From positions 1 to 27,433 of IMG/VR virus record IMGVR_UViG_3300032291_003218: a stretch of 27,433 nt of DNA. One strand, 5' to 3'. Positions 241 through 27,433 of the stretch are shown piece by piece (the stretch's first letter is position 1; each line of letters starts with the position of its first letter). Position numbers and translations under genes: made by a program. The stretch is from a virus. Its lineage: Duplodnaviria; Caudoviricetes. Below the pieces are notes generated by a model. It ran no database searches. It was not told the origin of the DNA and saw only the letters and a program-made list of their open reading frames with translations.

Positions 241-468
241 TTAAATTTGGTTATAGTATTCGTCTAATTCGTCTCCCATTAATTCGTTCATCCATTCGTT
301 CAAAATCATTTCTTGAGCTATTTCACCGTGAATTTGAAATTTAGGTTTCGCTTGTTTTTTCTTTTCAGTATTGCGAACTAACATTTTTAAGGTATTTCTT
401 AAATGATTAATATCCATTTCGTCAATATCTATTTTATTTCCGTTTCGCATTGTCCAATATGTTTTCAT
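241..468 (-). CDS. hypothetical early protein
   Basis: 75-aa ORF; start context AACGCT-ATG; ATGA overlap with upstream small ORF. Confidence 0.75.
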   Translation of the reverse strand: MKTYWTMRNGNKIDIDEMDINHLRNTLKMLVRNTEKKKQAKPKFQIHGEIAQEMILNEWMNELMGDELDEYYNQI

Positions 469-617
469 AGCGTTGTAATTTTAATTATTAAAGGTTTCCA
501 AATATCCAAAACTAATATCGCGTGGTTAGTGTCGTAGGCTTGAACTATCGTTGTTCGTTGTTTGCGTTTGGATTTCGGGGTTTCCTGATACCAGTGGGTT
601 ATAGCGTATTCTTTCAT
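465..617 (-). CDS. small hypothetical protein (50 aa)
   Basis: Manual translation MKEYAITHWYQETPKSKRKQRTTIVQAYDTNHAILVLDIWKPLIIKITTL; stop overlaps next start (ATGA); A-rich upstream. Confidence 0.6.
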   Translation of the reverse strand: MKEYAITHWYQETPKSKRKQRTTIVQAYDTNHAILVLDIWKPLIIKITTL

Positions 618-753
618 TTTTTATTTTTATAATGTTACAATAATGGTTAAAGTCGAAGTGTCCGTTTTTATGTATAGCGCCACCGCCACTTGTCCACCAA
701 CGAACTTGGTCGATTAAATCAATAGTCCCGTCTTGAGTTTTTTCCGTTGTCAT
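526..753 (-). CDS. hypothetical protein
   Basis: 75-aa ORF; start context AAAACGCTT-ATG; overlaps neighbours. Confidence 0.55.
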   Translation of the reverse strand: MTTEKTQDGTIDLIDQVRWWTSGGGAIHKNGHFDFNHYCNIIKIKNERIRYNPLVSGNPEIQTQTTNNDSSSLRH

Positions 754-1030
754 AAGCGTTTTGTAATTTAGTGTTATAATCTGCTTGTATAATTTCTTCG
801 TGTAAATCGGAGTTTAACAAGTCGTCATAAATTTCACTGGCAATTAGTTGTAAGTCGTACTCGGTTAGTAAATGTTCTAATTCGATTTCCAAGTCCGAAC
901 GGTAAGCCACCGCCGTGCAAATTGTTACTATTAAGTCGTTGTCTTCGTCTACGGATAATTCGAAGGTACATTCGCCTTCAAAGGTATCTGCGTAAAAGTA
1001 CGCTAACGGGTAGTGTGTTTCTATTCTCAT
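719..1030 (-). CDS. acidic hypothetical protein
   Basis: 103-aa D/E-rich ORF, ATGA-coupled to upstream ORF. Confidence 0.75.
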   Translation of the reverse strand: MRIETHYPLAYFYADTFEGECTFELSVDEDNDLIVTICTAVAYRSDLEIELEHLLTEYDLQLIASEIYDDLLNSDLHEEIIQADYNTKLQNAYDNGKNSRRDY

Positions 1031-1164: not shown

Positions 1165-1330
1165 TTTGTAAATTTAATCGGGTTAATAATTCTTCAATCG
1201 TAATTAATTCCTTAAATGCTCTTTTTGTGTCATTATCTAAATGTCCGAATGCGTCCCTGCATTCTACATAATTTTCGTTTAACTCTTTGTAATAAGCTAA
1301 AATCGTGTCTAAAATTTCTTGTTTTTCCAT
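1151..1330 (-). CDS. hypothetical early protein (start revised to 1330, MEKQEIL...)
   Basis: Track start 1366 lies inside the promoter -7 element; ATG at 1330 has the shared AAAACGCT-ATG context. Confidence 0.75.
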   Translation of the reverse strand: MEKQEILDTILAYYKELNENYVECRDAFGHLDNDTKRAFKELITIEELLTRLNLQNEII

Positions 1331-1363
1331 AGCGTTTTGTTTTTGTTCGTTAATAATTATACG

Positions 1364-1395
1364 CAAATATAAATAGTAAGTTTCAATCTACCAAA
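1364..1395 (-). promoter_or_regulatory. Bacteroidota primary-sigma promoter
   Basis: TTTG (1395-1392)-20 nt-TATATTTG (1371-1364), matching -33/-7 consensus; A-tracts upstream. Confidence 0.85.
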
Positions 1396-1437
1396 CATTT
1401 TAACAAATTTTTTTCACTTTTTAACATTTAGGTAGAT

Positions 1438-1460: not shown

Positions 1461-1714
1461 TGTAATAAGTTCGAGTAGTAAGCCTTAACCCCGTCGATAA
1501 ATTGGTAATGCTCAATCGTATTGTAATCTTCTTGTATGTCAACCCATACACTTTGTTGTGATTGCCAGCCTTCCGAGTTTACCCCTTTAACGTTGTGTTT
1601 CTTGCTTAACTTTGTTGCTAATTTAATAGCTGCATTTTTCGTTTTTGTTTCGTGGTATTGAATGACATCGCGTCCACCTTCAATACTCACTACTTCAACT
1701 TTGTAAGTAATCAT
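1451..1714 (-). CDS. hypothetical early protein
   Basis: 87-aa ORF with own promoter and terminator; AAAACGCT-ATG start. Confidence 0.8.
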   Translation of the reverse strand: MITYKVEVVSIEGGRDVIQYHETKTKNAAIKLATKLSKKHNVKGVNSEGWQSQQSVWVDIQEDYNTIEHYQFIDGVKAYYSNLLQGG

Positions 1715-1753
1715 AGCGTTTTGTTTTTAATAAATGAAAGAACTAATTATACA

Positions 1754-1785
1754 CAAATATAAACATTAATTAATTGCCTACCAAA
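1754..1785 (-). promoter_or_regulatory. Bacteroidota primary-sigma promoter
   Basis: TTTG (1785-1782)-20 nt-TATATTTG (1761-1754). Confidence 0.85.
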
Positions 1786-1788
1786 TTA

Positions 1789-1864
1789 TTTAACATTTTT
1801 TAACATTTTTTAACAAATTAAGCGTATAAACTTACGGAAAGCCTAATAAAATAAGCCTATAAAC
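1789..1864. repeat. short direct repeats upstream of early promoter
   Basis: TTTAACA x3 at 10-bp period (1789-1815); AAGCSTATAAAC at 1820-1831 and 1853-1864 with a variant at 1839-1850. Confidence 0.6.
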
Positions 1865-1865
1865 G

Positions 1866-1888
1866 AAAAAAGGGGTATTGCTACCCCC
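1866..1888 (-). terminator. intrinsic terminator ending late operon and candidate tiny RNA
   Basis: GGGGTA-GCAA-TACCCC-TTTTTT (GNRA tetraloop) on minus strand. Confidence 0.85.
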
Positions 1889-1904
1889 TAATTAAAAACG
1901 CTAT
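1866..1904 (-). ncRNA. candidate ~40-nt antisense RNA complementary to early-gene start regions
   Basis: AUAGCGUUUUUAAUUA + terminator hairpin, directly after TAAGTTTG (1915-1908); 5' part is the reverse complement of AAAAACGCTAT found at early starts; 5' end is inferred. Confidence 0.5.
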
Positions 1905-1907
1905 ACG

Positions 1908-1915
1908 CAAACTTA
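1908..1915 (-). promoter_or_regulatory. candidate -7 promoter element for the tiny RNA
   Basis: TAAGTTTG fits TAnnTTTG and continues CGTATA as in the 1364 promoter (TATATTTGCGTATA); -33 box is poor (ATCG at 20-nt spacing). Confidence 0.45.
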
Positions 1916-2779
1916 CAGCGGAAATTTGAAACTATCGATATTCTTTACGATTAATTTATCAACTTCTTTGCATTCGATTTTAAGAATCCGTCCGCCTAAT
2001 GGCTTTGGTGGTGCGCCACGTTCAACGTGCCAACCGTATGCGCCTTCGCCGTATTCTTCTTTGTACGTTCCTGTTAACATTAAATGGAGTTGCTTTTGTT
2101 TAATTGAGTAACCCATTTTCGCGTTATGCTTAATTGTTTCCCTAACATCGTTACGCGAACTATTTTCGTGAATGTGTCCCATAGTGAAAACGTCAAAGTC
2201 TTCGTACATCTCAAGCGCTCGCGTAAGGTTTAACGCGCCTTTGGTAACTACTCCACCACCACCCGAACCGTGGTAGTATTTAACTTTGGTTGTTATTTGA
2301 GCGTTCCCGTGGAAAATTTGTCGAATAATTACCCAACCACCATAACCGCCCGTTTGAACGCTTGAGCCACATTTATAGTTTAATAGGTCTACGAATCTTT
2401 GGAGTAAGTCCGTTTCTTGATATTTGATTACTCCCGTTTCGTGGTTTCCGTAGCCTATTACTTTTATAATATCCGCGTATGGCTTAAACCATTCCGAAGC
2501 GGTTTCGACTATCGAATCTAAATATCTTGCGTTGTTATGTTCTTGTCTAATGTCCGATTTGTTGCGTCGATTATCCCCGCGTCCCTGCATTAAACAAAAG
2601 AAATCCCCGTTTATAATTACGGGTATATTATTCTCCTTACAAAATTCTAAATTCTTTTTGAGTAGTTGCCTATCGCATTTTGGGTTATCCCAATGTAAGT
2701 CGCTAAGCATAGCTACGTGAACTTGCTTACCGTCAAGTTGCAGTTCGTGGACGTTTCGTCCGTGTTTAATTACATTCAT
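1913..2779 (-). CDS. calcineurin-like metallophosphoesterase
   Basis: Motifs SDLH, NGD, GNHE, HG, GHIH in canonical order. Confidence 0.85.
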   Translation of the reverse strand: MNVIKHGRNVHELQLDGKQVHVAMLSDLHWDNPKCDRQLLKKNLEFCKENNIPVIINGDFFCLMQGRGDNRRNKSDIRQEHNNARYLDSIVETASEWFKPYADIIKVIGYGNHETGVIKYQETDLLQRFVDLLNYKCGSSVQTGGYGGWVIIRQIFHGNAQITTKVKYYHGSGGGGVVTKGALNLTRALEMYEDFDVFTMGHIHENSSRNDVRETIKHNAKMGYSIKQKQLHLMLTGTYKEEYGEGAYGWHVERGAPPKPLGGRILKIECKEVDKLIVKNIDSFKFPL

Positions 2780-21530: not shown

Positions 21531-22061
21531 TTATTTAATTAATTCGTAATCTTCATTTTTGTAGTCCGTGTAATCTTCTCCAACGGCTAATCTTATTTTT
21601 TGTTTGCAGTTCTTTAGCGTGTTGAAAATGCTACTTGAACTTATTTTTGTTTCGGCTGCTATGTCCCTTATGCTTAAATCCGTGTCTCGATATAGTTCGA
21701 ATAACTTTTGGTCGTACCAGTGCCACGAATCTACTTCGTTTTCTATTTTACCCAAAATCTTTAAGTAGGCTTCGTGTTTATCTAATTGGCTCGGTTCGTC
21801 TTTTATTTGTATTGCCTCAATATCAAACCCCTCAAACTTTCCTTTATTACGTACCCCATAAAGATACATATTACGTAAAGTGAAATACATAAATCCTTTA
21901 TTGATTTGACCATTTGTTATTACGTTTTCAGGTTTACAATACTTATACAATCGAAGGTAACATTCTTGTACAAGGTCTTCAGCGTATAAATCTTCGCCAA
22001 AACTTTTAACTAATTTTACCCATTCTTTATGGTCTTTTGCCACGTCTTTAAGCCATTCCAT
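21531..22061 (-). CDS. phage-encoded sigma70-family (ECF-like) sigma factor
   Basis: Region 2 AEDLVQE.YL...LRN; region 4 HTH LSIRDIAAETKIS.SSI.NTL. Confidence 0.85.
   Translation of the reverse strand: MEWLKDVAKDHKEWVKLVKSFGEDLYAEDLVQECYLRLYKYCKPENVITNGQINKGFMYFTLRNMYLYGVRNKGKFEGFDIEAIQIKDEPSQLDKHEAYLKILGKIENEVDSWHWYDQKLFELYRDTDLSIRDIAAETKISSSSIFNTLKNCKQKIRLAVGEDYTDYKNEDYELIK
21538..21562 (-). promoter_or_regulatory. candidate first late promoter inside sigma gene 3' end
   Basis: ACAAAAATGAAGATTACGAATTAAT with the same ACA-N16-RTT spacing; ATG 21523 is 9 nt further than in other copies. Confidence 0.4.
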
Positions 22062-22114: not shown

Positions 22115-22141
22115 AAAAAAAAGCCACCTTATTCGGGTGGC
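22115..22141 (-). terminator. intrinsic terminator ending replication/recombination operon
   Basis: GCCACC-CGAATAA-GGTGGC-T8. Confidence 0.85.
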
Positions 22142-22344
22142 AATCCATTGTAAAAACGATAAACGAACGCGTCTAACTTCTTTGCAGTTTCTAAACTCAC
22201 TGGTTTACCGAGTAGGAACCTATCTAAGTTATACTGGTGCATTTTGTGTCCTCGTTCTTTTATTTCGGTTACTATTTGGTTTCGTGTTTTTGTTTCTAGA
22301 ATCTTACGCAAGTAACCTCGTAAGGAGTAGTCGTCTATAAACAT
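22129..22344 (-). CDS. small HTH-like protein (start revised to 22344)
   Basis: MFIDD...HQYNLDRFLLGKPVSLETAKKL resembles XRE-type helix pattern. Confidence 0.6.
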   Translation of the reverse strand: MFIDDYSLRGYLRKILETKTRNQIVTEIKERGHKMHQYNLDRFLLGKPVSLETAKKLDAFVYRFYNGLPPE

Positions 22345-23265: not shown

Positions 23266-23933
23266 AAGGTTTGCATTAATAAGTTATAGTATTCTCTACA
23301 TAGTTCGACACGTTCTTTAATTTGCTCAATTACGGATTCGTCTTTTTGCACGAACCAATACTTTACACGTCGATTTTTCGGAATGTGGCTAAACTTATGC
23401 TTTGCTTCGATTTCTTCGCGTAGTTCCTGCGATTCGTCTATAAGGTGGAATTTCCAGTGAGCGCGTCTTATTTCGTCTTCTACCATTTCGCTTGGAGTAT
23501 CTATAAGGCAATAAGCTAAAATGGATTCTTGTTTACCCGTTAACCACATATACCCCTGCAACTGATAATAATAATCTTTGTTAGGCAACTCCGTTTCGAA
23601 CCACGGAAACGTTGAAGCGTCCCAAGAACTTTTAACATCTATTAATACTTCGTCCGTGTTTACGTCGGGAGTTCCAGTTATCCAATCGTTTGTAAAGTTT
23701 TCGTCGTTCTTGTAAATAAACTTAAAATTCAAAACATCGTTAACAAGCGCTATCGATTCTTCTTCGACTTCGTTTCCTTTGTCGGTGTAACGTGAACTAA
23801 ACTCCTTTCGGATTCCGTATTTTTCTTTCAATACGACTTCTTCTACGTAGGACTTAGCCGTTTGCGATAGGACTTCCCCCGACTTACGGGGGTTAGTCAT
23901 TATCTTACCAATTTGAGAACATCGGACTTTCAT
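23262..23933 (-). CDS. YqaJ-like (lambda exonuclease family) nuclease
   Basis: KG...E, GTPD, DVKSS, YYYQLQGYMW. Confidence 0.85.
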   Translation of the reverse strand: MKVRCSQIGKIMTNPRKSGEVLSQTAKSYVEEVVLKEKYGIRKEFSSRYTDKGNEVEEESIALVNDVLNFKFIYKNDENFTNDWITGTPDVNTDEVLIDVKSSWDASTFPWFETELPNKDYYYQLQGYMWLTGKQESILAYCLIDTPSEMVEDEIRRAHWKFHLIDESQELREEIEAKHKFSHIPKNRRVKYWFVQKDESVIEQIKERVELCREYYNLLMQTL

Positions 23934-24448
23934 ACGTTTTGTAATAATTTGGTTTGACCTTCCGTTAATTCAAACTTTTCGATTAGTTCTTCTTTAGTAT
24001 ATTTCCCTTCGGCAATCATTTCTAAAGCCTTACCAAGTCGTTTGTTATCGATAGTTGGTTTTTTCTTTATTTGTTCGCCAGAAGCGTCCGTGTCTTTGTC
24101 CGTAACTAATCCGAGTGCCGAACTCAAAGCGTATCGACGAAAGTAAGTAACACCACTTCCGAAACTTTGGTAATCGTTCATTCCCTTTAATTCAACTTGC
24201 GGAATAGCTACCTTTGATTCTAACGTTTCGCCACTTTCAACGTGGAAAATAACCGTAGCAATGTAATCGATTCCTTCTTTAGTGTCGAGCAACTGCGTAA
24301 AGCCTAATCCGTGTTTTTTTAGAAGTGGGTTAACTACTTCAAAAATCTTCGGTAAATCTGCGTAAGAATACCCGTAGCCTTGCGTCCCTTTGTGAATTAC
24401 TGGTACTTCTTGTTGGAAGGCTGCCAACGACTTAAATAAATGTTTCAT
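23930..24448 (-). CDS. erf: ERF family ssDNA-annealing protein
   Basis: YSYADL, HGLGFTQ, H.SGE, Q..GS..TY.RRY.L...LGL....DTD. Confidence 0.9.
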   Translation of the reverse strand: MKHLFKSLAAFQQEVPVIHKGTQGYGYSYADLPKIFEVVNPLLKKHGLGFTQLLDTKEGIDYIATVIFHVESGETLESKVAIPQVELKGMNDYQSFGSGVTYFRRYALSSALGLVTDKDTDASGEQIKKKPTIDNKRLGKALEMIAEGKYTKEELIEKFELTEGQTKLLQNV

Positions 24449-24481
24449 AGCGTATTATTTTTTAATTGAACTTGATGAAAT

Positions 24482-24658
24482 TTAACTCCCTAGATTTTTA
24501 ATGTTATCCAAACTGTATTTAGCAGTTAATAAACATTGTAACTGCATATGCAATTTTTCTTTTTCTTCGTTCCAATCTTGTTGTAAATCAAAATTGGTCT
24601 CAATAATCCAATTTTCTAAAGTTTCTTGGATTTCCGTAAATGTTAAATCTTTTTTCAT
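24482..24658 (-). CDS. hypothetical protein (start revised to 24658)
   Basis: ATACGCT-ATG start context; 58 aa. Confidence 0.65.
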   Translation of the reverse strand: MKKDLTFTEIQETLENWIIETNFDLQQDWNEEKEKLHMQLQCLLTAKYSLDNIKNLGS

Positions 24659-24706
24659 AGCGTATAAATTAAAACGTGCGTTAACCAAGTCGCACCCCTT
24701 GTTTTG

Positions 24707-24901
24707 TTAAAATAATTCTAATTCACTTTCTTTAACAGTACTTTTGCATAAACTACCCGTCCAAGTCTTAAATTCTAATTTTACTTTTCCGTTTTTTAAT
24801 ACTTTGGTAATTGTTGCTTTTTGAAATAAAAAACTTTCAAACATTTGTACTTTGTGAATTACTACATCTCCGATTTTTAATTTTGTTTCTTGTGTTTTCA
24901 T
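24707..24901 (-). CDS. small SH3/KOW-like hypothetical protein (start revised to 24901)
   Basis: LKIGDVV...ATITKV...KVKL; track start lies in promoter; AAAACGCT-ATG context. Confidence 0.65.
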   Translation of the reverse strand: MKTQETKLKIGDVVIHKVQMFESFLFQKATITKVLKNGKVKLEFKTWTGSLCKSTVKESELELF

Positions 24902-24925
24902 AGCGTTTTCGTTTTTAATTATACA

Positions 24926-24956
24926 CAAATATAAATATTATTTTTTAATCTGCAAA
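24926..24956 (-). promoter_or_regulatory. Bacteroidota primary-sigma promoter
   Basis: TTTG (24956-24953)-19 nt-TATATTTG (24933-24926), A-tracts upstream. Confidence 0.85.
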
Positions 24957-24973: not shown

Positions 24974-25357
24974 TTATATTTTTTTTCCTTCTTCGATATT
25001 TAGCAGGGTGTACGTCTTTTCGATAGGTGTAATTCTTTCGAAATGCGTTTCGTGTGGAAGTCGTTTATCGGTTATCCAATTAGGTTTAATGTTGCGTAAA
25101 TCAAAAGCAAAGATTCCGTTAGGAGTTGAATTTATGTAAACTGGCTTTTCGTCTTCTTCTACGTAGCGTTTAACCATATCCACGTACTTTATTTTTTCGA
25201 GAATTAAATTCGGGTAATGTCTTCTTCTACATTTAAGTTCGATTCGTGTTTTCGTACTTGGGGAGAAACAATCCCATTTATCGTAACGTCCCGTGCTTCG
25301 TTCTAAGTCGGGAAAATAGTTTTCCTTTAGGTAATTAAATAAAATAGATTCGTTCAT
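24974..25357 (-). CDS. PD-(D/E)XK nuclease-like protein
   Basis: WDC...IELKCR motif; AAAAACGCT-ATG start. Confidence 0.6.
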   Translation of the reverse strand: MNESILFNYLKENYFPDLERSTGRYDKWDCFSPSTKTRIELKCRRRHYPNLILEKIKYVDMVKRYVEEDEKPVYINSTPNGIFAFDLRNIKPNWITDKRLPHETHFERITPIEKTYTLLNIEEGKKI

Positions 25358-25869
25358 AGCGTTTTTATTTTTTGTTTGTAGGTTTCTATTATTTCTTTAA
25401 GTTCTTCGCGTGTGTATTTTCGTGTTTCGTGTGCTTTTTCGTGGAGTTCTATTAATTTATCCGCGCCTATTCTTTGTTGGATTCCTATTTGGTAGTTTAA
25501 TAAGTTTCCGTGTTTGTGTTGATTGCACGTTACGCATTGCCCGTGGACGTTGTTTTCATCGAATGTAACGGCTTTGTGCCCGCCACTACTAAAGTAATGC
25601 CCTGCGTCGTATTTACTCCCTAATGGTTTATCGCAACTTACGCAAGGTTTATCCTTGTCTCGAAGCCTTATGTACTTGTTAAAAACTACTTGAGCCAGTT
25701 TAGTTAGTTCCTGAACGGTTTGGAGTTCGTCTTTTAATACCTTTTTCTTCTTCTTCCATTGTTTTTCCTTTTCAAGTTCTACCCAAACACGGACGCAAAA
25801 AGAATCAAAGCAATACTTTTGGTTAAATCGAACGGGAGTAAATTCGGCTTTGCAGTTCTTACACTTCAT
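25354..25869 (-). CDS. ninG: NinG (Rap)-like recombination endonuclease
   Basis: CxxC, FNKYIRLRD..PCVSC, DAGHY, N.HGQC..CN...GN. Confidence 0.9.
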   Translation of the reverse strand: MKCKNCKAEFTPVRFNQKYCFDSFCVRVWVELEKEKQWKKKKKVLKDELQTVQELTKLAQVVFNKYIRLRDKDKPCVSCDKPLGSKYDAGHYFSSGGHKAVTFDENNVHGQCVTCNQHKHGNLLNYQIGIQQRIGADKLIELHEKAHETRKYTREELKEIIETYKQKIKTL

Positions 25870-26159: not shown

Positions 26160-27049
26160 TATTTTGCTTTAGCGTATTTTTTAATTAATGTATTCCCGTG
26201 TTGTTCTTGCTCAAAGTAAACTAATTTTTCTTTATCGAAATAGATTTCGTGTTTACCTATTTTTCCGTTTGAACGTGGTTTAATCTTGTTAAAGTACAAT
26301 TCCGCTTTATAATAAGTTGGGTCTTCGCGGTGAACTGTTACCATACATTTTCCCGAGTTAAACCATTCCGAACCACCTTTTAAGTCGTAAGGAACTGGCG
26401 CACTTCGTTTTCCGTTTTCCTTTTCCGTTAGCTTTGGGTGGATAATAGTATGTAAATGTAAGTCGTTGTCTTCGGCTATTTGGTTACGATACGGAAGAAC
26501 GAACTCCAAGTATTGAGCATAACCACCGTAATCGTTGTAAGGGTGGTTTAAGTCCTTCCAAGAATCTATCGAAGCCGTTTCAAGTCCTTCGTCTTTTTTT
26601 AGCTGCACCGCGTAATCCCAAAATTCTATCGGTGTCATTTTCGCTTTAATATCGTCTCGCGTTAGTACCTTAAAATGGTGCGTTATCCATTCAATAGCTT
26701 GTAAAATTTCATCGTCCGTAATTACATTGTAATTACTTGGGTTGAAACTTTTACCCGTTTTCTTATTAATTAAGTCCGCGATAATTTCCACGTTCGAACC
26801 AACGTCGGGAAAATAAACCAAATGTTTCCACCCGTAAAAACGGCTCGTATTCATTAAACACTCCATAAGAACTTGAGTTTTACCGCTCATCGGAAACCCC
26901 GTCCAATCGGTGCAATTACCTAAACTCATTGAATAGTATTCGTCCATTCCTTCGAAGCCTAAGTATTTACCTTTTTCGTGGTAATTGTTTCTATACCTAA
27001 ATAGGTCATCTATTACTTCGTGTGCTTTTGTTATCTTAAATCCTTTCAT
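26159..27049 (-). CDS. SF4 (DnaB/T7 gp4-like) helicase
   Basis: Walker A TGFPMSGKT, IDSW Walker B-like, HP.K, YDLKGG..W, VHR, KIKP...GKIG. Confidence 0.8.
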   Translation of the reverse strand: MKGFKITKAHEVIDDLFRYRNNYHEKGKYLGFEGMDEYYSMSLGNCTDWTGFPMSGKTQVLMECLMNTSRFYGWKHLVYFPDVGSNVEIIADLINKKTGKSFNPSNYNVITDDEILQAIEWITHHFKVLTRDDIKAKMTPIEFWDYAVQLKKDEGLETASIDSWKDLNHPYNDYGGYAQYLEFVLPYRNQIAEDNDLHLHTIIHPKLTEKENGKRSAPVPYDLKGGSEWFNSGKCMVTVHREDPTYYKAELYFNKIKPRSNGKIGKHEIYFDKEKLVYFEQEQHGNTLIKKYAKAK

Positions 27050-27062
27050 ATTTCGTTTTTAA

Positions 27063-27433
27063 TTAGCGCCAACAAAATGTATTCTCGGCAGTTTGTTCTT
27101 TAGGTAGCCATTCGGATTTGAAACCACTCCAATTTCGCTCAACGCAATTCTTGAGTATAAAATTAGGACTATTTTCGTTTTTATTTACTTCGCGTATAAA
27201 TCCGTTAAACGCTGTTTCGGTGTTTGTAGCCTTTTTAACCTTGCGAACCTGAATCCAATCTTTTACAAGTTGTTCCTCGAATCCAAAAGAAACCATAGAA
27301 TCATAAAAACTAAATGTATTATTCTTTTCTTCTTTATTCTTTACATTCTTGTTAGTGGTCGTTTGTTGGTCATTCGTTGGTCGCTCGTTGGTCGATTCGT
27401 TGGTCTCTACTTGGTATTTATCGTAGTTAACTA
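27063..27433 (-). CDS. phage replication initiator / replisome organiser, 5' end outside window
   Basis: Frame open to window edge: VNYDKYQVETNESTNERPTNDQQTTTNKNVKNKEEKNN...W...RK.KKA...NW.GF. Confidence 0.75.
   Translation of the reverse strand, partial: VNYDKYQVETNESTNERPTNDQQTTTNKNVKNKEEKNNTFSFYDSMVSFGFEEQLVKDWIQVRKVKKATNTETAFNGFIREVNKNENSPNFILKNCVERNWSGFKSEWLPKEQTAENTFCWR
27352..27405. repeat. iteron-like direct repeats (candidate origin)
   Basis: GACCAACGA-like units x5 at 11,11,11,12-bp spacing, next to strand-asymmetric A-rich tract 27315-27350. Confidence 0.65.

Follow-up and report, generated by a model that had tools for sequence, protein, structure and literature searches.

The DNA analysed here, referred to as the window, is a 27.4-kb virus record with an estimated completeness of 92%, and all its credible genes lie on the minus strand. 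It belongs to a family of uncultured phages with genomes of approximately 29-31 kb. PHROG and Pfam searches identified a replication and recombination block (DnaB-like helicase, NinG, ERF, exonuclease and SSB), followed by the gene of a sigma-like factor and then by the terminase, head, portal, amidase and calcineurin-like phosphoesterase genes. A search with the capsid protein gave the cultured Nonlabens phages P12024S/L, with 30% identity, and a search for cultured relatives with the phosphoesterase returned distant records only. The host probably belongs to the Flavobacteriia, because of promoters of the TAnnTTTG type, the capsid match to P12024S and the co-binning of genome-scan matches with some Flavobacterium MAGs, where unrelated bins also appear.

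The element of interest, hereafter called the cassette, lies precisely where the last late gene gives way to the first early promoter, and is composed of a promoter-like box, a short tract and a terminator:

1913..2779, minus strand: gene of the calcineurin-like metallophosphoesterase, the last late gene (phrog_7339, E 2e-17; PF00149 below cut-off), the 3' end of which carries the putative promoter
1908..1915, minus strand: predicted sigma-A-type -7 box TAAGTTTG, in which the stop codon of the phosphoesterase gene supplies the first three bases
1890..1904, minus strand: predicted single-stranded 5' seed AUAGCGUUUUUAAUU, antisense to the early start tag and unpaired in the 39-nt fold
1866..1889, minus strand: intrinsic terminator with an 8-bp stem, a GCAA loop and a U tract, the predicted 3' end of both the small RNA and the late operon

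The minus-strand sequence of 1866-1915 is exactly as the initial annotation gave it, and the GNRA-loop terminator claimed there was confirmed, with a folding energy of -11.7 kcal/mol. The TAA of the box is the phosphoesterase stop codon (1913-1915). An RNA starting at approximately position 1904 (AUAGCG...) would measure 39 nt and comprise a single hairpin besides 15 unpaired bases, and the mean unpaired probability predicted for its seed is 0.95. In relatives the predicted RNA measures 36-58 nt. A search of the window against 4227 Rfam families gave no match at E <= 1.

The tract had been proposed to be antisense to the start codons of many early genes. The start tag in question, ACGCTATG, occurs seven times in the window, always on the minus strand and always at an early ORF start (468, 1330, 1714, 24448, 24658, 24901 and 25357), against a mean of 0.56 copies in shuffled sequences, none of 100 of which reached seven. 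Late genes lack it. The match lengths reported earlier agree with ours, i.e. 12 nt at 25357, 10 nt at 1330, 1714 and 24901, 8 nt at 468 and 7 nt at 24448 and 24658, and the motif does have a single copy in the opposite orientation, ACGCTAT at 1898 only. The 10-mer of the cassette is expected 0.03 times on the strand. Three sites had been overlooked. The helicase leader (27049) contains a 12-nt match, position 753 has a match with a bulge, and the 24901 leader carries a second 12-nt block where its mRNA is predicted to begin. The predicted targets are as follows:

27047..27065, minus strand: additional predicted target, the leader of the DnaB-like helicase gene, with a 12-nt match ending 4 nt before the ATG
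25355..25367, minus strand: predicted target at the start of a 127-aa early gene, a 12-nt perfect match (-13.8 kcal/mol)
24899..24921, minus strand: predicted target covering the whole 20-nt leader of a 64-aa early gene, with matching blocks of 12 nt and 10 nt
24656..24663, minus strand: predicted weak target at the start of a 58-aa gene upstream of ERF, a 7-nt match (-8.6 kcal/mol)
24446..24467, minus strand: predicted core target at the start of the ERF single-strand annealing protein (gene 23930-24448; PF04404), with two-block pairing
1712..1722, minus strand: predicted target at the start of an 87-aa early gene, a 10-nt match
1328..1338, minus strand: predicted core target, a 10-nt match at the start of the gene of a conserved early protein of 59 aa, which in most relatives is encoded by the first early gene
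751..762, minus strand: additional predicted target with one bulged base (-9.8 kcal/mol)
466..487, minus strand: predicted target at the start of a 75-aa early gene, with two-block pairing

The predicted duplexes of the window are modest (-8.6 to -13.8 kcal/mol). Their targets lie 0.15-25 kb from the cassette on the same strand, and the RNA is not encoded opposite any of them. The helicase orthologue in genome G002 carries the full tag. The 59-aa protein (gene 1151-1330) has no Pfam or PHROG match and only Atlas matches below 0.9; its family was called in 17 of 21 genomes, mostly as the first early gene. A tag used throughout the host was also considered and rejected: two Flavobacterium-labelled MAGs showed no enrichment (9 copies versus 8 of the reversed control in each), and a 4.5-Mb Flavobacteriaceae MAG contained 12 versus 5 for the control, far below the 4 found in the 27 kb of the window.

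Early transcription in the window is predicted to start from promoters of the following kind:

24926..24933, minus strand: early promoter -7 box TATATTTG, leading to 24901, 24658 and ERF
1754..1761, minus strand: early promoter -7 box TATATTTG with TTTG at -33, leading to 1714
1364..1371, minus strand: early promoter -7 box TATATTTG with TTTG at -33, leading to 1330

The cassette box is degenerate and has no TTTG at -33. The weakness of this -33 box, already pointed out in the initial annotation, stands, but it is not unusual, as TTTG is also missing at that position from several internal early promoters in this phage family. A 10-nt repeat, TGTTAAA(A/T)AA, is present in three tandem copies directly upstream of the -33 box of the first early promoter (1786-1815, minus strand) and in one copy before the second (1396-1405, minus strand), with similar repeats in relatives; these are possible regulator binding sites or UP-like tracts.

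Late genes apparently use a different promoter, consisting of a GCAAC/GAACA-like block and, only some 4 nt ahead of the ATG, a TTATAAT/AATATA-like block. A late-type promoter was considered for the cassette as well, and none was seen there. The motif is found at four places in the window:

11402-11367, 10602-10567, 7987-7953 and 7660-7628, minus strand: late-type promoter-like motif GCA(A/C)(C/A), 14-20 nt, TTAT(A/T)A, with the ATG 1-5 nt further on

These four copies are all in sense orientation, with none in antisense, and the resulting late mRNAs would be nearly leaderless. Related motifs (GAACA ... GCAATATA, and TTAATATAGTT) precede late genes in other lineages. The motif is probably read by the phage sigma-like factor (21531-22061). 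Directly upstream of the promoter of the sigma-like gene lies the gene of a 71-aa protein (22129-22344, minus strand), which has no Pfam match, appears HTH-like by eye and is a candidate regulator of the early-to-late step.

We then considered the 5' end of the predicted RNA. In the accessible part of PMC9723704 the -7 box of F. psychrophilum spans -12 to -5, and on this basis the +1 of the cassette would fall at about 1903-1904. In the four lineages examined (4/4), the window's included, the 3-5 nt after the box are variable and conservation begins thereafter. A U:G pair with the G of the AUG, which had been added earlier by way of base 1905, is doubtful for the window phage, because this base is probably -1 and thus outside the RNA. 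Among 20 lineage-A spacers it is C in 15, T in 4 and A in 1, and a G:U wobble there was set aside as proof of RNA pairing, the base being variable and probably -1. Pairing in the window lineage would thus end at the AU of the AUG. The tract of lineages B-F reaches over the AUG and the codons that follow it. CAT is present in 76 of 84 cassettes, and six of the other eight have TAT or CGT, which are wobble-compatible; the changes opposite the AUG, from CAT to CGT in lineage D and from CAT to TAT in lineage B, are few events and transitions.

The cassette is a real, conserved feature. The phosphoesterase was used in one genome scan and three viral scans, which yielded 193 loci with some contigs counted twice; 130 of these passed a strict parser requiring box, tract and terminator. 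When no promoter was required, 181 loci offered 60 nt or more of sequence beyond the stop codon; 141 of them had the terminator, and the other 40 lacked one after the phosphoesterase gene. Eight loci (L075, L077, L079, L080, L083, L095, L183 and L184) have the same boundary and no cassette there. The terminator stems of relatives occupy the same place with a different sequence and retained pairing, and the tract differs among at least seven lineages. The 141 terminator loci correspond to 63 distinct spacers, 62 of which contain TAnnTTnR. TAnnTTnG beginning at the stop codon was found in 49 of the 63 distinct spacers, compared with 13 of 947 other TAA/TAG stops.

In nearly every case the tract is flanked by the last late stop codon on one side and the terminator on the other, and the box is degenerate, its TA coming free with the stop codon. 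This is what one would expect if the active species were the late mRNA's 3' portion, in intact or processed form, and not an independent transcript, so that the same pairing would serve as a strict early-to-late shut-off. Several observations speak against this reading, which we consider rather unlikely. The TT at positions 5-6 and the G at position 8 are kept in the 49 spacers, far above the control stops, the box persists where it is detached from the stop codon (L072, L081, L109, L187, L051 and L056), sometimes as the canonical TATATTTG, and conservation starts at the expected +1. In addition, folding predictions for 18 of 21 genomes leave the seed less accessible in the long RNA than in the short one (0.47 versus 0.95 in the window), although this argument is weak, because any longer RNA folds more. 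The independent transcription that was first thought uncertain thus appears better supported, through the frequency of the box and the conservation boundary, and an independent small RNA repressing the early regulon would be the most likely explanation on sequence grounds. The last phosphoesterase codons, CGCTGTA, can pair with TATAGCG of the seed in the long late mRNA (1898-1920, minus strand), and in the folding model this pairing can mask the seed except when transcription begins at the cassette's own promoter.

A pattern scan for the cassette type of the window produced 93 hits, with the phosphoesterase upstream in 76 of the 89 that could be evaluated. Downstream of 52 distinct hits, over 128 kb, the tag was found 58 times in sense and never in antisense orientation. 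Some ten hits that lack an upstream phosphoesterase are not followed by any tag and are apparently unrelated terminators. In locus L031 a cassette of the same build lies behind a different gene. P12024S has no cassette after its phosphatase; after its holin gene there is an unannotated TATATTTG box followed by a U-rich tract and a terminator (L194, NC_018271.1, 10174-10245). This unit was rejected as support because its tract, which lacks an anti-AUG, is no better than shuffled sequences, 181 of 300 of which do as well.

If the tract acts by pairing, its sequence and that of the early starts should change together. In the comparison, lineages were labelled from the tract sequence alone and start calls were blind to the seed; some of these calls are wrong, e.g. 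that of the first early gene in lineage C. Among the partial loci, 71 were distinct of 90 with at least six downstream genes, and across nine groups the own seed fitted the own early starts better than permuted seeds did (89/362880), which was not so for the late control (11189/40320). The whole-genome set comprised 21 genomes, i.e. 20 near-complete genomes and the window, in seven lineages, with a genome-specific threshold. Early starts passed the threshold in 49 of 437 cases and late starts in 10 of 542. Permutation of the seven lineages, in which each tract fitted the early starts of its own lineage best, gave 1/5040 for early and 3121/5040 for late starts, values which overstate independence because the lineages are related, the capsid tree being a quick version.

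The ERF start alone passed the threshold in 15 of the 21 genomes and in 7 of 7 lineages, with a permutation value of 1/5040. The first early gene gave 4/5040 and another early family 326/5040, against 4950/5040 for the exonuclease, 2659/5040 for the capsid and 2117/5040 for the portal. ERF falls into two very distant subfamilies, and the tags change within each. Examples of reversed seeds with their ERF starts are AACGCTATG / TACGCTATG, AAAACAACGTATTATGA / AAAACAACATATTATGA, ACACGCTAATGA / ACACGCTAATTATGG, TAACACACACTATGAAAA / TAACACACACAAAATGGAAA and AAAACTATGAAAC / AAACACTATGAAAC. In the pair G013 and G014 the ERF proteins are identical at 171 of 173 residues, but conservation drops in the leader (0.75, against 0.88 and 0.92 in its flanks), and the best partner of each leader is the seed of its own genome. 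The matches are split into two blocks and their bulges vary, as they would in RNA duplexes. Relatives that kept the start motif but lost the antisense copy, or did not covary with it, would have spoken against the initial annotation; the comparison showed that the cassette is kept and that its tract covaries with the early starts of each lineage.

The agreement is not uniform. Three of the 21 genomes (G003, G007 and G023) have no start above the threshold, and G003 shows an uncompensated seed change, CATATCG versus ACGCTATG. Early starts beat shuffled seeds (at most 5/100) in only 15 of the 21 genomes, and late starts in 3 of 21. The lineage B seed is predicted to be about half paired.

In Bacteroidota, the A-rich leader and the start codon take the place of the Shine-Dalgarno sequence as signals. 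A U-rich tract preceding a terminator might match such leaders by composition, as the tract of P12024S does, or might be nothing else than the start of an antisense ORF, and ORFs of 54-71 aa do exist in some frames. We regard this explanation as extremely unlikely in view of the rarity expected of the 10-mer and of the specificity of each seed for its own lineage, with null late-gene controls, which argue against a compositional artefact. ORFs from the mirrored ATG were discarded as candidates, as this ATG is spread over the three frames (43/30/10), gives ORFs of anything from 2 to 71 aa and does not exist in the window.

Alternatively, the tag could be a DNA site for a phage protein, its inverted copy at the terminator being a further operator or a roadblock, with no RNA pairing involved. 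The window encodes the HTH-like 71-aa protein and the sigma-like factor mentioned above, and the direct repeats near the early promoters suggest protein binding. A DNA site is nevertheless very unlikely, given that the tag is strand-specific and fixed to the AUG, that a single inverse copy lies between a promoter box and a terminator, that the matches are gapped with variable bulges, and that the sequence changes wholesale between close relatives.

The cassette is thus very probably a functional antisense element. The parallel change of mirror and tag, lineage by lineage, indicates that one tiny RNA is likely to turn down the translation of a whole gene set, and our preferred reading, which we hold to be probable, is that of a minimal trans-acting antisense RNA gene of approximately 39 nt, which would block the initiation of translation of early genes. 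The host sigma-A RNA polymerase would start at about 1904 from the -7 box overlapping the last late stop codon. The free 5' seed would then pair with positions -12 to +2 of the targets in the window lineage and, in others, extend beyond the AUG to about +8, thereby covering the A-rich leader and the start codon and occluding the ribosome. Since the cassette has no promoter of the late type, its RNA would already be produced in the early phase; it may build up from the time of infection and later be reinforced by late transcripts ending in the same sequence.

The RNA could also pair with the tags and act otherwise than by simple occlusion, i.e. by guided cleavage or decay, possibly with the phosphoesterase, by early transcription termination or by helping initiation. 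The frequent presence of the phosphoesterase upstream of the pattern hits is in keeping with this idea, as is the additional match of the seed to the predicted 5' end of the mRNA at 24901. The cassettes of the same build behind a different gene in L031 and P12024S point to a link with the end of the operon and not with the enzyme, and activation is hard to reconcile with the coverage of the AUG and first codons in lineages B-F. Taken together, a mode of action other than occlusion seems improbable.

The small RNA proposed here can be compared with known regulators. C4 of phages P1/P7, as described in the accessible part of PMC5320573, is a trans-acting phage antisense RNA that occludes initiation on a phage mRNA, and its seed and target differ together between relatives. 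Likewise, the cassette seed and its target covary between relatives and specificity resides in the seed-target pair. C4 is an RNA of about 77 nt with three stem-loops, which carries its seeds a' and b' in loops, is processed by RNase P and belongs to a temperate-phage immunity system, whereas the cassette RNA is predicted to consist of one hairpin and a linear 5' seed, 39-58 nt in all, has no Rfam match, and would address 2-9 early starts including ERF. The phages that carry it have no detected integrase or CI, and a plasmid-like or carrier state is possible.

GibS of Bacteroides thetaiotaomicron is a trans-acting sRNA of the Bacteroidota whose unstructured 5' seed pairs across start codons and represses, according to the accessible part of PMC7366714, and sets a precedent in this phylum for pairing at start codons. 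The same paper states that Bacteroides has no obvious Hfq or ProQ homologue, which, like the modest predicted duplexes, counts against the proposed RNA. The likeness of the cassette to GibS lies in its own promoter and intrinsic terminator, as judged by sequence only, and in an unstructured, conserved seed directed at distant initiation regions. GibS is chromosomal with metabolic targets, whereas the cassette targets the phage's own genes, which share a lineage-specific tag. Some sRNAs derived from 3' UTRs, such as CpxQ and DapZ, have their terminator in common with an mRNA, and those of the DapZ type are transcribed from a promoter inside the upstream gene. The cassette likewise shares its terminator with the late mRNA; RNAs of the CpxQ/DapZ type are Hfq-dependent host RNAs of Proteobacteria and are not known to have a designed regulon tag.

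As far as the accessible text of PMC12197685 goes, phage antisense RNAs are mostly directed against a single gene, found in temperate phages, or host-directed, and sar (P22), OOP and aQ (lambda) and STnc6030 (BTP1) act in development or superinfection. Each of these concerns one gene and is largely encoded on the opposite strand, according to the same text, whereas the cassette RNA would be trans-encoded and multi-target. The cassette RNA works like C4 and GibS and belongs to neither family. No description of the box-tract-terminator unit was found in the literature searched, mostly open-access main texts.

The most likely role is that of a damper or timer on the early regulon, i.e. on the first early gene, the ERF recombinase and often the primase/helicase. 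By rough judgement, and provided that the RNA acts as proposed, this role has slightly better than an even chance; a seed-specific exclusion of co-infecting relatives comes next and is clearly less likely, and the maintenance of a carrier state is doubtful. The suggestion of a lysogeny control is not supported in its classical sense, since no tyrosine integrase, resolvase or HTH_3 repressor (PF00589, PF00239 and PF01381) was found in any of 24 near-complete relatives, which makes classical lysogeny unlikely. More tentatively, the system might constitute an RNA-only address code, in which a private lineage tag on the early starts is read by one RNA of about 40 nt that times the phage's own early genes and silences later phages with the same tag, the seed types being immunity groups which diversify to escape one another. 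This is a possibility to which we attach limited weight.

A near-minimal RNA is thus predicted to control an entire early regulon by means of a start-codon tag placed by the phage, and ready-made compensatory mutants exist in the natural swaps of seed and tag. Should this be confirmed, a small phage lacking a CI-type repressor could time or damp its early functions in this manner, translation control would be shown in a phylum without Shine-Dalgarno pairing, and a short orthogonal seed/tag pair would become available for gene silencing in Flavobacteriia.

Three further observations were made in the relatives. Genomes G008, G010 and G022 (L209-L212 and L229-L230) are mosaics which combine an ERF and helicase module of the window type with a head module of another type, and their ERF tags follow each genome's own cassette. 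In locus L309 the early region carries an A+T-rich insertion, situated within approximately 1.7-3.2 kb downstream of the cassette, which by eye seems to contain genes of the thymidylate synthase and MazG types. Finally, a promoter-to-terminator unit of about 90 nt with the inverted repeat GAATTATTC ... GAATAATTC is conserved in two phages (L091:9007 and L108:16125) and is possibly a structured RNA.
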